Shown in pieces: positions 3,731 through 62,874 of a stretch of 64,000 bases of DNA (the stretch's first letter is position 1; each line of letters opens with the position of its first letter). The DNA lies in the NCBI GenBank assembly GCA_017646745.1, contig JAGCLY010000003.1:3495-67494 (forward strand), written 5' to 3'. Source of the DNA: Clostridia bacterium. GTDB lineage: Bacteria > Bacillota > Clostridia > Oscillospirales > CAG-272. The notes under the pieces were generated by a model. It ran no database searches and was not told the origin of the DNA. It worked only from the letters and a program-made list of their open reading frames with translations. The position numbers were made by a program, and so were the translations under genes.

Positions 3731-6700
3731 TTATCCTTTTTCATCCCTTCGCTTACGCTTAAAGGTAACTATTTTTACCGCATGACCGCCTGACAAGGCA
3801 ATCATTTTTACTGCTGAAAGGCTAAAATCGTTTGCTTGAATAGTAAGCGGCTTATCAATCTTACCGCCTCCAAGCACCTTTAAATATGCAATATCCGATG
3901 CAATAAGGCCTTTTTCCTTCAAGGTATTTATATTTACTGTATCCCCCTCGGCAAAGGATGGGCTTATATCTCCAAGATTAATTATACCTCTTCCCTCTCC
4001 CTCTGTATAAACGATCTCTCCCTCTCGCTCAATCAGGCTTTTGGCAATAGAATCGCTGATAAGAGAATCGGCCTTTTCCGCATCGATCTCAGTACTTGCG
4101 GATCTGAGGATAATATCGTTAATGCCAATATCAACAGATTTTCTTTCTGCAATATTCTCTGTGATCTCATCAAATCTTTTACCCATGCTCTGCCTTTCGT
4201 CAACTCGCAACTCTCCGCTTATCATCCCTCTCGGCAAGGGCGCCTTATATCCTCTGTTATGCATTTTACATTTCAGCATAGCCACAGAGGTTGCTATCCT
4301 ATATCTGTTACGGTATGCAAAAAGGCTAACAATCAATATCATAATCATTATTATCAAGCCTCCGAACAAAATCACAGCGCCGTTAAATGTTGGATACGGC
4401 AGCCGTATAACCCTTCCGGGAGTAACCTCCAGGGTATAGTTTGGATTATCCGATCGAATGTACACCTGCTTTTTTTCGATATATGCACTGACAGTCAGAC
4501 TGTCTCCTTCAAATACCCTTCCATCTGTTACTACAAAATCAACGTCTGAGGGTTCCTCAAACAGTTTAAGCTTAACATTGCTTACGCTTACAGCTAATTG
4601 GGCCGGTAAAATGCAAAAAACAGCATTTGCCGATTGACCTGAATTTTCCTTAAAAACATAGTTTTGTGGATCGCTTAGCATTATGAGCACTGAGTATGAT
4701 CCTGCATCTCTGAACTGCTCCCAGCTCTCAACCGTATAAAGCATGGAATCCGATATTGCAGCCTGTGGCATACCGTTATAGACTGCGGTAATTAGCGGTA
4801 TATTAATGCTACATTTTTCAATTACCAGCTGACATGGCGGAACTATAGGCTCGTTATAATTTTCCTTATCATAATCCAAAATAACAGATACACTGTAATT
4901 TCCTGCATTGGTATTACTTCCACTAATATACTCCTTCACACTTACCCCCTGAGGCAATCCTGTCAGACTTGGCATTTTACGACTACCATCATATATCTGC
5001 ACAGTATCACTCCAAGCAACTCCGGAAAGATCATAATCGGCATATCCCACCTCTATCGGAAGAGAAATGACAAGCTCTCCGTACCTCATTTCCACAGCCG
5101 TATCACTTTTACGTAAGGATTCGCCATTTTTGTATATTACGGTTACCTTCGACGGATCTACCGCATCACAGCTTCCGTCGTTATTAATAACAGAGCAAAC
5201 TATATCCTCATTGCCGAGTGTGTCAAAGGCTGACAGCTTATCCTTGACAATAACCGCAACAAAGGATATGGGAACAACCTCCACAATTTCAAACGATATG
5301 GGCAGAGACTTAAGACCTGAGTAGTTTGAGGTCTCATTTACTGTAATCACGGCATAATATTTGCCAATGACGGTAGGCGCTGATATTTCATTTTTGCATG
5401 CGCTATCCGAATAAAAGGTGTATTCCGCTTTCCCGTACCGTCCCTCTCCCGTAAGGGTAATATCCTTATTCTCATAGCAGATCGAATCAGTAGGTATGAT
5501 ACTCCAATAATTCTGCGCTTTTGCTATGGTGAACTCAGCCTGATCGTTAAGAACGTAATAGTCATTATTATCGCAGGATGCCACCGCCAGATACTTGCCT
5601 GCATCCACAGCGCCTCCGCTAACCTTTATATTACACTCGGTCGAATAAGCTGCGGGGCTTTGCTCCTCTCCGTTATAAGTAAGGCTAAGGGTGCCCCAGC
5701 TTACGTATATTCCGCAAGGATCTATGCTTACACCGGAATACATATCTGCGGGAACGTTATAATTGCCGCTTGCAGTATGAAATTTTACAATAACCGAAAC
5801 AACTCCGTCAGAAACGTGACATGCGCCTGCAGAAAAGCTATATTCAAGGGCAATTCCGTCTGCACCTACCGGCATAGCGCCCACCGGTGTCGGATAATGC
5901 ATTCTACCATCGTAGGTATAGCTTTCATTTTTAAAGCTGACGCCGCTCATATCATAATCGGCCTTTTTAATCTCCCAATGATGAGTAAGACTCGGCGGAT
6001 TGTTATAATTTTGCTCATCCCATTTCAGCAGAGCGGTAACGGTATACTTACCTGCATCGGTGGCAATGTCTCCGCTATATCCGATAATGCTCACCCCTAC
6101 CGGCAGGCCGGAGGCGCTTATGCTTTTTTTACTTCCATCGTAGGTAAAGCTATCCTTGCTCCATACCACCGTGGACATATCATAGTCGGCCTTTCTTATT
6201 TCGAAGGAAACCGAGGTATTGCCGAACCGATAATTAGCATCGTTAGTTGCGGCAACTGCGGTATATCCGCTTCCGGCATTGATTGCTCCCCCGCTGACCG
6301 TAGGATATACAGCTGCGCCGTATACGTCGATATAATAAGCTATTGGAGATTTGCTTTTTCCGTCATATACAAAGGAAAGCTTGTCCCACACCATATTCGC
6401 CTGGGCGGGCTCAACTGTCATGCTGATAACCCTGCTTTCAGGAATAAGGTAATCCTTGCTTTCGCCGTCAAAATCAATCGTCAGGTCATATACGCCAACG
6501 TTAATCCCGCCACCTGACAAACTGACACTAAGGGGAAGTCCGTCAAGGCCTACAATTTGAGGAATGGATCTGTCATAGCTCTGAAGCCTACCGTTATAAA
6601 CAACAGAAAAGCTTTTAAGGTCAAGCGCACTCAGGTCGTAGGATATACGATTTACTGTAACCGGTAATCTTACACTTTTGTTGCCATAAGAAATATTGAC

Positions 6701-26575: not shown

Positions 26576-27913
26576 ATGGAAGATACGAAAAAGCGCGAGC
26601 TACGAACCTGCGCCTTTTGCGGACGCAACGAGCGTGAGGTCGCCTTCCTCATTCCCGCCATGGATGGCAAGACCTATATTTGTGACAACTGTATAGATCT
26701 TTGCTCGGACTTTATCGAGCAGCATATTGCCAGCCTGGAGAAGGACGAGTCGGATAATGATAAGCTGACCTTCGAATCATTGCCCCGCCCCAAGGAAATT
26801 AAGACGATGCTTGACGACCACGTTATCGGTCAGGAGGATGCGAAGTTTGCATTATCCGTAGCGGTATACAACCACTACAAGAGAATCCTTACCCTTGAGG
26901 AGGCCGAAAAAAAGGCAAAAAAGGGAAAAAAAAGCAAGGCAGTTAGCGATTCGGATGACGATGAGGTTGAAATTCAAAAGTCAAACGTGCTCCTGCTCGG
27001 TCCTACCGGTGTTGGTAAAACCTACATTGCGCAGACACTGGCAAAGAGCTTTCAGGTTCCCTTTGCTATCGCCGATGCGACCACCCTTACCGAGGCAGGA
27101 TACGTGGGCGAGGACGTTGAGAACATACTTCTCAGACTGATTCAGGCTGCGGATTATGACATTGAAAAAGCCGAGCACGGAATCATCTACATCGACGAGA
27201 TCGATAAGATCACCAGAAAAAGCGAGAACCGCTCTATCACCCGTGACGTATCGGGCGAGGGCGTTCAGCAGGCCCTGCTTAAGATCCTGGAGGGTACAAC
27301 AGCAAACGTTCCTCCTCAGGGCGGCAGAAAGCATCCTAATCAGGAATTTATACAGATAAACACCAAGAACATTCTGTTCATCTGCGGCGGCGCATTTGAG
27401 GGTATAGAATCTATCGTCGAGCAGCGACAGGGCAACAGCCTTATAGGCTTTAACACCGATAAAAAGACCAAAAAGGAAAAGGTAGAGCGTGGCGTATACA
27501 AGGACGTAATCGCCCATGATATTATCAAGTACGGTCTTATTCCCGAACTGGTGGGCCGTCTGCCGGTTATCGTTACACTGGAGAACCTTGATGAGGATGC
27601 GCTGGTAAGAATTATTAAGGAACCTAAGAACTCGCTGGCAAAGCAGTACAAAAAGCTCTTTGGCCTTGACGGTATTGATCTGGAATTCGAGGATGAAGCG
27701 TACAGAGCTATTGCGCATCTCGCTATTGAGCGTGAGATCGGCGCAAGAGGTCTGCGATCGATCATCGAGGGACTTATGATGAAGCCTATGTTTGAGCTTC
27801 CTTCCCTTCCCGATGCAAAGCGTGTGGTTGTGACCGCAGGCTTCGTTAAGGGCGAGGAGGAGCTGACGGTTATTTACAACACCGATAAGCTTCTTGAAGA
27901 GACAAAAATATAA
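26576..27913 (+). CDS. clpX: ATP-dependent Clp protease ATP-binding subunit ClpX
   Basis: N-terminal zinc-binding CAFCGR...CDNC and Walker A GPTGVGKT. Confidence 0.97.
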
Positions 27914-27919
27914 TATTAA

Positions 27920-27960
27920 AGAGCGATGAGAGCCTATCTTATCGCTCTCTTTTGTTATTT
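27920..27960 (+). terminator. Rho-independent terminator of clpX
   Basis: AGAGCGAT-loop-ATCGCTCT followed by a T-rich run. Confidence 0.75.
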
Positions 27961-28049
27961 TTTTATATTCAGCGAGTCAATATTTGTGCAACGTGTACAC
28001 TTTGGTGAAATTTTTATAAAAAATATTGGATATTTTTATCATTTACCTA

Positions 28050-28078
28050 TTGACAAGAAAGATTAAATATGATATATT
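28050..28078 (+). promoter_or_regulatory. Orphan consensus sigma-70-type promoter
   Basis: TTGACA (28050..28055), a 17-nt spacer, then TGaTATATT (-10 at 28073..28078). Confidence 0.6.
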
Positions 28079-28194
28079 TAAGCCAGAAGGTAACGAAGAG
28101 AAAAAGAGGTTGGGCAAAGGCCCAACCGTATATTCAAATTTTACACGAGTAGGTTTCTCTTCAGCCAAAAATCTAAGAAATGGAGGACACGCCA

Positions 28195-28299
28195 ATGCAC
28201 AATTCTGAAGAACCGAATCACTTTTCTGCCTGCCGCCTTGCAGGATGCGGAATAGCGAGTATTTCGTGCATAGCGGCAGGTTCCCCCAAAGTGTGCTGA
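28195..28299 (+). CDS. Candidate 34-aa Cys-rich micro-protein (MHNSEEPNHFSACRLAGCGIASISCIAAGSPKVC)
   Basis: GGAGG lies 8 nt upstream of the ATG. There are four TGC Cys codons. It is too short for the ORF track. The same stretch can also fold into nested helices, so coding is not proven. Confidence 0.3.
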   Translation: MHNSEEPNHFSACRLAGCGIASISCIAAGSPKVC

Positions 28300-28514
28300 G
28301 CTAACAGCCAAAAAAACTTAATATAAATGCGACTGATACGACTCTTTTTTAGAGTGTGAGAGGTGTTCCCTCTTTAAAGTTAGGATACTTTATATCCATT
28401 GTGTGCGAGAGTTTAGTATCAAATTATTTAAAAAGTTTAAAACTTAATAATAAAAAACTGTTGGTTTATATGAAAAAATTAAGAGGCATTGACGCCGAAA
28501 AATGACATAGAGAA

Positions 28515-28545
28515 ACGGTGAGGATTTTTCCTCACCGTTTTTTTC
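28515..28545 (+). terminator. Rho-independent terminator of the orphan transcription unit
   Basis: ACGGTGAGGA-TTTT-TCCTCACCGT followed by TTTTTTT. Confidence 0.8.
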
Positions 28546-28585
28546 TATAAAAAAATAGTTAAAATTTACCTTACCCCTTACCTAA

Positions 28586-28669
28586 TGCGGGAAATGTCGT
28601 GCGTTAAGAAAACGATTGATTATCGTTTTTAGCACGAAGACTGAAGCGATAGCTGAAGTCTGTCCCGTT
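28586..28669. repeat. 84-nt structured repeat, copy A (three-helix fold; starts with the tRNA-Leu acceptor sequence)
   Basis: 70/84 identical to copy B. The closing helix is GCGGGA/TCCCGT. The long hairpin is CGTGC..AAAACGAT-loop-ATCGTTTT..GCACG. A 9-bp hairpin spans 28639..28660 and carries a conserved 2x2 internal loop. Confidence 0.5.
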
Positions 28670-28685
28670 TTCGCTCAACAAAAAA

Positions 28686-28715
28686 GGCAGGCCATTTGGT
28701 CTGCCTTCTTGTTGG
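28686..28715. terminator. Hairpin with U-rich flanks on both strands, between repeat copies A and B
   Basis: GGCAGGCC-ATTT-GGTCTGCC. The plus-strand reading has a G-U pair where the minus reading has an A-C mismatch, but the better T-run (TTTTTTG) is on the minus strand. Confidence 0.5.
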
Positions 28716-28799
28716 TGCGGGAAATGTCGAGCGTTAAAAAAACGATTGATAATCGTTTTTAGCGAGAAGTTTGAAGGCTTGCCTGAAAACTGTCCCGTT
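28716..28799. repeat. 84-nt structured repeat, copy B
   Basis: It is preceded by TGG, so 28713..28724 (TGGTGCGGGAAA) is identical to the tRNA-Leu 3' end at 28868..28879. The hairpin at 28769..28790 differs from copy A at three base pairs, all compensatory. Confidence 0.5.
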
Positions 28800-28828
28800 C
28801 CCTATCCAGGTAAAGACCTTGCTATAGC

Positions 28829-28864
28829 AAAAAAATAAAGACCAAGATTTTCATCCTGGTCTTT
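28829..28864 (-). terminator. Rho-independent terminator of tRNA-Leu
   Basis: On the minus strand: AAAGACCAGG-loop-CTTGGTCTTT followed by ATTTTTTTG. Confidence 0.8.
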
Positions 28865-28867
28865 ACC

Positions 28868-28951
28868 TGGTGCGGGAAACGGGACTTGAACCCGTACATC
28901 AAAGATACACGCCCCTCAAACGTGCGCGTCTGCCGATTCCGCCACTCCCGC
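28868..28951 (-). tRNA. tRNA-Leu (anticodon GAG), class II, CCA encoded
   Basis: The reverse complement reads GCGGGAG-TG-GCGGAATCGGCAGACGC-G-CACGT-TTGAGGG-GCGTG-TATCTTTGATGT-ACGGG-TTCAAGT-CCCGT-TTCCCGC-ACCA. Features are a 7-bp acceptor stem, U33, anticodon GAG, G37, a long variable arm and a canonical T-loop. Confidence 0.9.
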
Positions 28952-28962
28952 GAACATTTGAT

Positions 28963-28991
28963 ATTATAGCACACTATTTTCTATTTGTCAA
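28963..28991 (-). promoter_or_regulatory. Consensus promoter of tRNA-Leu
   Basis: On the minus strand: TTGACA, a 17-nt spacer, then TATAAT. The tRNA 5' end lies 11 nt after the -10. Confidence 0.7.
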
Positions 28992-62673: not shown

Positions 62674-62685
62674 ACTCTTTACTAT

Positions 62686-62830
62686 GAGATAGAGGTGCAC
62701 TTGACGAAGATTATTCCACCCTGAATGCCGCCGAGGCTGTGGAAGAAAGGCGTGAGTGCCGAAGCGGATGCTGTGGCAGGCATCTTGGCTGGCAGTACGG
62801 ATAAGATCCGCCCTGCTGTCGCATTTTATG
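62686..62830 (+). promoter_or_regulatory. Lysine riboswitch (L-box) aptamer
   Basis: It contains the L-box landmarks AGAGGTGC, GGAAGAAAGG, GTGCCGAAGC, TTGG and CCTGCTGTC in the same order as the B. subtilis lysC leader. It lies upstream of dapA-dapB. Confidence 0.85.
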
Positions 62831-62874
62831 CGAAGGGCTATCATTATTGCGGCGTAACCTTTGCGCCTTGGTAG

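Follow-up and report, generated by a model that had tools for sequence, protein, structure and literature searches.

The tRNA-Leu(GAG) gene (transfer RNA, tRNA) on contig JAGCLY010000003.1 of a Clostridia bacterium is followed by two structured 84-nucleotide (nt) repeats, and the question this locus raises is what such repeats are and why they stand behind this particular tRNA. The window, which is the whole 64,000-nt stretch of DNA analysed here, holds copy A (28586-28669) and copy B (28716-28799), identical at 70/84 positions (83%), and no further copies. Comparison with related loci reveals that both are parts of larger modules. With a rough probability of 0.45, the sequence comparisons suggest that these modules are miniature, gene-less integrative cassettes that accrete at the bacterial attachment site (attB) in tRNA-Leu(GAG) and would be moved by an enzyme acting in trans.

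The initial annotation had described two structured repeats, which the repeat comparison confirms, and the 14 differences between the copies are all as described there. Six lie in the stem of hairpin P3 and make up three compensatory pairs (A-U to U-A, C-G to U-A and C-G to G-C), while three lie in its loop (GAUA to CUUG). Another three affect the P2 extension, where two pairs become tandem G.A/A.G; one turns a G.U into an A-U pair at the base of P2, and the last is in the P2 loop. With the TGG that precedes copy B included, all 12 nt of TGGTGCGGGAAA (28713-28724) are complementary to the 3' end of tRNA-Leu, again as first noted; in the counterpart of copy A, TAATGCGGGAAA (28583-28594), CCA has changed to TTA. 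Compared with shuffled sequences, the RNA folding z scores are -5.9 (A) and -3.2 (B) on the plus strand and -5.6 and -2.5 on the minus strand. DNA energy parameters give similar values, and both strands of both copies are far above their shuffles in stability. The two P3 alleles are old and recur elsewhere, the A type in loci L010 and L027 and the B type in L002 and L007 (L numbers denote loci fetched for comparison).

On the tRNA strand, each module consists of an intrinsic terminator, which comes to serve the tRNA or the preceding module, an inverted copy of the tRNA end, a body of some 70 nt with two hairpins (P3 first, P2 and its extension second) and a direct 12-nt copy of the tRNA 3' end, the core TTTCCCGCACCA. 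The window thus runs from the tRNA through T-a, inverted copy, body B and core to T-b, inverted copy, body A, a decayed core and a possible remnant of an older terminator. The features, read from the tRNA outwards, are as follows.

28963..28991, minus strand: promoter of tRNA-Leu, with TTGACA, a 17-nt spacer, TATAAT and an extended TG (12/12 consensus positions).
28868..28951, minus strand: tRNA-Leu(GAG) gene (ARAGORN; Rfam tRNA model, 46.8 bits), the last 12-22 nt of which are the repeated core.
28826..28870, minus strand: terminator T-a of the tRNA, with X3 at 28853-28870 (overlapping the CCA), X2 at 28836-28848 and a U-run (terminator scan).
28792..28818, no strand given: inverted copy of the tRNA 3' end (GTCCCGTTCCCTAT) and X1 (CCAGGTAAAGACC) (inverted repeats I2 and I9).
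28725..28791, no strand given: body B, with the P2 extension 28727-28732 pairing with 28762-28767, P2 at 28738-28760 and P3 at 28768-28791 (fold, covariation).
28713..28724, minus strand: core of module B, a direct 12-nt copy of the tRNA 3' end, TTTCCCGCACCA on the tRNA strand (read from the sequence).
28680..28712, no strand given: terminator T-b (hairpin 28684-28707), between modules B and A (terminator scan).
28662..28679, no strand given: degenerate inverted tRNA-end copy of module A (GTCCCGTTTTCGCTCAAC) (read from the sequence).
28595..28661, no strand given: body A, with the P2 extension 28597-28602 pairing with 28632-28637, P2 at 28608-28630 and P3 at 28638-28661 (fold z -5.9, covariation).
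28583..28594, minus strand: decayed distal core, TTTCCCGCATTA on the tRNA strand, with CCA changed to TTA (repeat D3).
28551..28582, minus strand: tentative remnant of an older terminator, AGGTAAGGGGTAAGG...TATTTTTTT on the tRNA strand, likened by eye to T-a' of L018 (AGGTAAGGGCTAAGG...).

Each module is bounded by direct repeats of the tRNA 3' end, one core lying at the end of the tRNA itself and the other at the distal end of the module. Distal cores have often decayed and lost the CCA, as in copy A of the window and in L003, L005, L006 and L038. A terminator follows every unit, and a strong one (13-16 base pairs (bp) of stem and 7-8 U) also precedes it; the T-b type of linker recurs in L005, L006, L007, L010, L027 and L031. 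The plus-strand segment 28792-28818, GTCCCGTTCCCTATCCAGGTAAAGACC, matches the reverse complement of 28858-28885, GTCCCGTTTCCCGCACCAGGTAAAGACC, which comprises the tRNA end and its flank. Their pairing creates a 94-nt imperfect palindrome centred on the tRNA terminator, with a 3x3 bubble opposite G71-C72-A73 and fold z scores of -7.5 on one strand and -7.7 on the other. Of P1 (GCGGGA/TCCCGT), the 3' strand belongs to this inverted tRNA-end copy; P1 is therefore a by-product, not the independent helix it had been taken for, and the real unit exceeds 84 nt. The three-helix element proposed as complete is thus part of a module that also includes the terminator and the inverted copy.

Which of the helices are real was judged from an alignment of 15 homologous units, with 500 shuffles and slid alignments as controls. 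Overall, 93.5% of the cells are in standard pairs and ten pairs have changed on both sides, values that none of the 500 shuffles reaches, while the slid alignments are 41-46% paired. The P2 extension occurs as CGUG/CACG, CAAG/CUUG, CCUG/CAGG, CGCU/AGCG, CGCG/CGCG and UGCG/CGCA; P3 occurs as AGACU, AGUUU, AGACC, AGAGU, AGCUC and AGUCC, each with its matching partner, around an inner stem of AGC/GCU or AGG/CCU. The core of P2 is nearly invariant apart from three mutually compensatory alleles (CGAT/ATCG, CTCT/AGAG and ATGC/GCAT), and the sequences of the internal loop and the junctions do not vary among units. P1 has no covariation in the 15 units, and some copies lose its pairing, a pattern of decay only. 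Covariation thus supports P2, the P2 extension and P3, but not P1; together with the fold z scores it bears out the earlier view that selection acts here, namely on base pairing. All four gametes are present among the combinations of P2 and P3 alleles, so that units recombine or convert one another.

Exchange between units is also what would be expected if the arrays were inert scars, that is, remnants of decayed integrative elements or of local duplications, in which templated quasi-palindrome repair and gene conversion rather than selection keep the hairpins. Distal copies do decay, a duplication in L018 includes the terminator, the units L006a and L006b share both P3 and P2 extension, and pairs are broken in L009, L011 and L027. 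We nevertheless consider this account improbable: around 20 diverged copies from at least 14 genomes or assemblies have the same junctions and the same, highly paired fold, P3 has at least five different compensatory alleles, the P2 core three and the P2 extension six or more, the internal loop and the junctions are invariant, and remnants of chance deletions would not end at the same positions again and again.

The distribution of the family ties it to a single tRNA. A scan with a gapped pattern over one genome per species recovered ten true loci (L001-L007 and L009-L011), all in metagenome-assembled genomes of uncultured Eubacteriales, Oscillospiraceae and Clostridia, as well as two chance hits in Bacillales; a second scan with a pattern of the body only, which did not require the tRNA-like end, added two metagenome contigs. 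In 12 of these 12 true loci a tRNA-Leu(GAG) gene lies within a few hundred bases of the units, and without exception unit and tRNA are on opposite strands, as in the window. Extra copies came from contigs that encode close relatives of UxaC, the product of the neighbouring gene (an exact-protein look-up of ClpX returned no record). About 20 distinct sequences of this body type, hereafter type I, are now known; all are downstream of tRNA-Leu(GAG) and in one orientation, with one to three units per locus.

The neighbourhood separates the tRNA from the genes around it. On the promoter side uxaC is conserved in five loci, whereas on the far side of the arrays the genes, ordinary housekeeping ones, differ in every genome. 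Relatives of UxaC at 85-89% identity have neither the tRNA nor units beside uxaC, which indicates that the units follow the tRNA and not uxaC. The tRNA of L014 carries U66C, and the core copy of its module has the same change. L017, a metagenome contig of the window's strain, breaks off after 4816 bases, precisely at GCGGGAAATG of copy A; the repeats evidently break short-read assemblies.

Are the modules gained and lost? Module content differs among strains with the same or nearly the same UxaC. In L020 and L021 the tRNA CCA is followed by a terminator, T-c, and then by ...TTTACAAGGGATTACTTCGG, whereas in L027 and L038 two modules stand between the tRNA CCA and the same T-c and flank, so that empty (L020 and L021) and occupied (L027 and L038) sites can be compared and differ with an exact boundary at the repeat. 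The order of modules outwards from the tRNA varies too if the body types II and III described below are included: I, III in L007 and L031, III, I in L013, II, II, I in L011 and I, II in L005. In L038, the segment led by T-c is a 2.5-kb island inside the array, bounded by core remnants (...GTACATTATCCTCTCTGGTACACCA at its end); behind it come a terminator and then a type I module, the third of this locus, in a decayed state. The right-end motif of this island returns in L018, in an island after the module, and the terminator T-a' is found there on both sides; the direct repeat of L018, about 55 nt long, comprises core and terminator.

L018 3050-4770 and L038 11810-14250: islands sharing the right-end motif GTACATTATCCTCnnTGGTnCACCA.

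The shared end speaks for a further family of integrative elements, one that makes use of no more than some six nt at the very end of the tRNA. The contents of the two islands differ, one carrying an open reading frame (ORF) of 89 amino acids and an HNH_3 protein, the other two ORFs that lack a Pfam match.

The frame of direct core, inverted copy and own terminator is not confined to one body. At least two unrelated bodies are found in it, and neither has a match in Rfam. Type II is about 150 nt long with a 15-nt core and occurs in L011 (twice), L005, L004 and L067; one of its hairpins has the compensatory alleles GGCGGC/GCCGCC or GACGGT/ACCGTC. Type III consists of about 75 nt enclosed by a 22-nt core, which starts in the T loop, and its inverted copy, and occurs in L007, L013 and L031. 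Its hairpin has a conserved TCC-ACC-GGA top on covarying stems (TGACAGTCC-ACC-GGACTGTCA, TAACAGTCC-ACC-GGACTGTTA and GAAAACTCGTCC-ACC-GGAAGAGTTTTC).

L011 2186-2600, L005 3329-3531, L004 4920-5122 and L067 about 4690-4860: type II modules, with the highly conserved core TTTTGCAAAGCAAACACAGAAAACGTTAGCCCTTTTCTCGCC.
L013 1268-1416, L007 1270-1418 and L031 4704-4852: type III modules.

In L031, the 3' core of the type III module is truncated beside rpsT. The hairpin of type III was also considered as a hammerhead ribozyme, CUGACGAG being core-like, and rejected, since stem II lacks the GAA that should follow it and Rfam has no match. A further framed element, possibly a fourth body type, lies past the type I unit of L014 (L014 1-130, ...TTGAATGATGTCCGTTTGGGACATCATTCAAG...GCTGTCCCGCAAT).

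That the 3' end of this tRNA serves as an attachment site in the lineage is indicated by two viral contigs. L015 and L016 contain 30 nt of the tRNA-Leu(GAG) 3' end, from the T arm to the CCA, without the rest of the tRNA. A tyrosine integrase gene lies directly upstream of this copy and a terminator directly downstream, with pairs of ATCTGTCA[TC]G repeats on both sides, a layout that is that of a classical phage attachment site (attP). In relatives of the integrase this layout recurs around 3' ends that come from other tRNAs.

L015 576-900, L016 10622-10950 and L041-L046: integrase/attP family of phages or small elements, with ATCTGTCA[TC]G as arm repeats and AAACCCGCG...CGCGGGTTTTT as terminator.

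The attP scaffold is conserved throughout this family (L015, L016 and L041-L046), and its core of about 30 nt is swapped among different tRNA 3' ends; L041-L044, elements of some 5.2 kb, look circularly permuted and carry the integrase and a replication-initiator-like gene. Two short resemblances between phage arm sites and the unit, of TCTGTCCCG to TCTGTCACG and a common TGACATTT, were judged too short to count. The phage sites and the modules both have a copy of the tRNA 3' end followed directly by an own terminator, and integration of either would leave a similar duplication of the core, which in L015 and L016 is that of tRNA-Leu(GAG). Unlike the modules, the phage sites have a 30-nt core, arm-type repeats and an integrase gene.

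A scenario of integration can be built on these observations. Insertion of a module between the tRNA CCA and the downstream sequence would duplicate the 12-nt core and restore an intact tRNA with a terminator, as phage attP does; older modules would be pushed outwards and their cores would decay. Insertion and loss would proceed by site-specific recombination at the core, presumably catalysed in trans by a tyrosine integrase from phages or islands that use the same tRNA end. The hairpins would be needed either as a structure acting in cis in single-stranded DNA or RNA, or as part of a small RNA (sRNA) made by read-through. Integrative cassettes are favoured by gain and loss at a 12-nt repeat, by variable order, by accretion together with a larger island and by phage attP with the same tRNA end. 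The compensatory hairpins of types II and III in the shared frame, the exclusive link to one tRNA, the U66C of L014 and the variable genes on the far side count in the same direction. Of the three readings that the initial annotation had left unranked, the comparative data thus favour the third, miniature structured insertions resembling attachment sites, while an sRNA co-transcribed with the tRNA is kept alive by the match to the tRNA-linked repeats (TLRs) of Escherichia coli.

It is important to point out what weighs against integrative cassettes. Both the excised circle and the cognate integrase are hypothetical, the recombination step is inferred, and the integrase of L015 and L016 demonstrates use of the site only. 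Genes for an integrase, a transposase or a reverse transcriptase are absent up to about 4 kb from each array, in keeping with the earlier remark that no integrase or transposase is nearby; the type I body is absent from viral contigs, phage records and plasmid records, as is that of type II, and the phage attP shows no similarity to the type I body and contains no inverted core copy. Stems that covary freely are unlike double-stranded protein-binding sites, which makes a role of the body purely as an attachment-site arm unlikely and calls for some single-stranded form. At 130-150 bp, a module would make a very short double-stranded circle to excise; gain and loss at the 12-nt repeats could be mimicked by slippage, by homologous recombination or by alleles replaced through gene transfer, and the repeat of about 55 nt in L018 looks more like a local duplication.

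Could the modules be expressed instead? On the tRNA strand, a fraction of the transcripts started at the strong tRNA promoter might run past the first terminator and yield RNAs of the TLR type: the inverted and direct copies would form a helix resembling an acceptor stem with a 3' GCACCA tail, and with its help the enzymes that mature tRNA 3' ends would release a stable sRNA of two hairpins, with the next terminator as its end. What would be expected is a distinct species of about 100 nt on the tRNA strand that stops at the core, ...TTTCCCGCA(CCA). We regard this as the main rival to integrative cassettes, and as less probable than they are. The architecture is that of the E. coli repeats, with the same orientation, a position between two terminators and a 3' end identical to that of the upstream RNA. 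The tRNA's own promoter, of perfect consensus, is the sole promoter of the region. The terminators after every unit fit it as well: in the X2:X3 pairing of the T-a hairpin, all seven wobble mismatches found in 12 linkers are G.U on the tRNA strand, and most T-b hairpins are alike in this respect. Selection on the pairing of the body and a core copy that tracks U66C in L014 agree with an expressed RNA, and an origin by integration would still be compatible with it. However, a strong terminator also stands before every unit, the CCA is gone in several distal copies whose bodies are intact, and the account assigns no role to a pairing between X1 and X3 and leaves both the differing module order and the island within an array unexplained. 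The two accounts are compatible in that one cassette could be both mobile and expressed.

Further signals fit the opposite strand better. The loop of P3, read on the plus strand, is either gCUUGc, in seven alleles, or GNNA (GAUA, GGGA, GGUA); in the same direction the invariant 2x2 internal loop and two further sites become tandem G.A/A.G, and both P1 and P2 close with a G.U pair. In the covarying helices, sporadic wobbles number seven on the plus strand and four on the minus strand, a ratio that is not significant. X1 (28806-28818) pairs with X3 (28853-28870), and the pairing covaries between lineages (GGTAAAGACC, GGATAAGGGC and GGTAAGGGCTA); all 14 of its wobble mismatches are G.T on the plus strand and none is A.C. 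The last count has to be discounted, since 9/13 positions of X1 are A or C and random transitions would give the plus direction in 69% of cases; with about seven independent events, p is about 0.05-0.08. X3 therefore has two mutually exclusive partners, X1 and X2, each apparently tuned to a different strand.

An antisense RNA transcribed from the plus strand would account for many of these signals. Its 5' end (UGGUGCGGGAAA) would be complementary to the 3' end of tRNA-Leu, its fold would comprise P2, P3 and the long hairpin of X1 with X3, and its target would be the tRNA or the tRNA precursor. Tetraloops of the G(CUUG)C and GNNA kinds, tandem sheared G.A pairs in three contexts, conserved G.U pairs at helix ends, both wobble counts and the T-b hairpin of the window, which has its G.U on the plus strand, are consistent with such an RNA. 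We nonetheless think it has little chance of being correct: no promoter lies upstream of the units on the plus strand, where a terminator or unrelated sequence precedes them, T-a is not a terminator in this direction, the complementary 5' segment is buried in P1, and besides the limits on both counts given above, every strand signal fits single-stranded DNA of the plus strand equally well. Neither strand has a conserved promoter adjoining the units (TAAAAT at 28560-28565 has no -35 element), and GC skew was uninformative as to the replication strand. On balance we lean towards the plus strand as the one that folds, either as RNA or as single-stranded DNA, with the promoter and the terminators in favour of the tRNA strand; signals exist for both, and the strand is as ambiguous as the initial annotation had held.

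Several simpler identities were rejected. A miniature inverted-repeat transposable element would have inverted ends, which the core and the inverted copy do provide, but there is no flanking target duplication, no copy is found away from tRNA-Leu(GAG) and the window has two copies only. Degenerate tRNA genes or tRNA-like RNAs are ruled out by ARAGORN and the Rfam tRNA model, which find the true tRNA only; the similarity is confined to the last 12-22 nt and the inverted copy. Across the window and the related loci, searches of Rfam at gathering thresholds and at E<=10 returned only the tRNA and, elsewhere in the window, a lysine riboswitch, which upholds the view that the units belong to no known RNA family; weak hits to miRNA precursors reflect long palindromes only.

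Other features of the window lie outside the array. The region left of copy A (27900-28590) has no homologues among the fetched loci. It contains a short ORF for a 34-amino-acid peptide with five cysteines; no maturation genes are near this ORF, and no homologue of it is present in the fetched loci.

28050-28078, plus strand: near-consensus promoter (TTGACA, 17-nt spacer, TATATT with TG), preceding the short ORF.
28195-28299, plus strand: ORF with a GGAGGA ribosome-binding site for the five-cysteine peptide, MHNSEEPNHFSACRLAGCGIASISCIAAGSPKVC.
28513-28548, plus strand: strong terminator after this ORF.
62682-62848, plus strand: lysine riboswitch (83 bits).

How do the modules compare with known systems? 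Repeats linked to stable RNA genes have been known in E. coli since 1978: rtT lies in the tyrT operon, and RrA, RrB and RrF follow rrnA, rrnB and rrnD (Egan and Landy 1978, Rudd 1999, as cited in PMC8144298). In total there are 22 repeats at ten loci, with one to five per locus, and each has 18-19 nt in common with the 3' end of the upstream tRNA or ribosomal RNA (rRNA) (PMC8144298). RrA, RrB and RrF are located between the dual terminators of rRNA operons and correspond to a read-through product processed at the repeat, as shown for RrB, while the origin and function of most TLRs are not established (PMC8144298). Like the modules, TLRs are directly downstream of a stable RNA gene, in the same orientation and one to several per locus, with a 3' end that matches the upstream RNA. 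They differ in the length of the identity, which is 18-19 nt there and 12 nt in type I (9 nt plus TTA in copy A), 15 in type II and 22 in type III here. They also belong to another phylum and share no sequence similarity with the modules, which have no match to the Rfam RtT family and add an inverted tRNA-end copy and an own terminator.

Outward growth of arrays at tRNA and tmRNA genes has precedents as well. In the tycheposons of Prochlorococcus (bioRxiv 10.1101/2020.12.28.424599) and the ssrA islands of Dehalococcoides (PMC3146451), newcomers push older elements outwards and leave scattered partial tRNAs, and there are gene-less units that can be mobilized in cis. Direct repeats of an RNA-gene 3' end, outward pushing, degenerate distal copies and units lacking an integrase are common to these islands and the modules. 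The islands, however, are kilobases long and carry genes, whereas the modules are 130-200 bp long, gene-less and of putative mobility, with a conserved, covarying fold.

Integron attC sites and the attP of CTX phage are folded, single-stranded recombination sites. The likeness to them is one of form only: an imperfect palindrome, two stems with an unpaired bubble, a variable terminal part, arrays of short cassettes and hints that one strand folds. In contrast to those systems, the modules have no linked IntI-like or Xer-type recombinase, their sequences are unrelated and their cassettes contain no genes. A bolder account, which we regard as a long shot, would nevertheless make them a gene-less cassette system of the integron kind: the tRNA-Leu 3' end would play the part of attI, the palindrome of tRNA-end copy, terminator and inverted copy, with its conserved bubble at G71-A73, would fold in single-stranded DNA opposite the tRNA strand and rebuild a duplex recombination site, and a tyrosine recombinase acting on folded single strands would capture, stack and shuffle structured non-coding cassettes. 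If true, this could also explain the origin of the E. coli TLRs.

In design, the modules come closest to the TLRs of E. coli, the other near kind being the accretion of elements bounded by attachment sites at tRNA genes, and they form a previously undescribed family in gut Clostridia. What appears to be new is the covarying two-hairpin body, the use of one frame around unrelated bodies, the obligatory inverted tRNA-end copy that forms a bubble-containing palindrome around each terminator, and the occurrence in Clostridia. For the assembly of metagenomes, the arrays matter in that they break contigs at tRNA-Leu(GAG) and mark a hotspot of strain-level variation in gut Oscillospiraceae. The questions they open are whether the modules are mobile cassettes, processed sRNAs or both, and why each has an inverted copy of the tRNA end. 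They also offer three things that the E. coli TLRs lack: clear covariation in the body, several unrelated bodies in one frame, and natural variants in presence, absence and order at a site targeted by phages.

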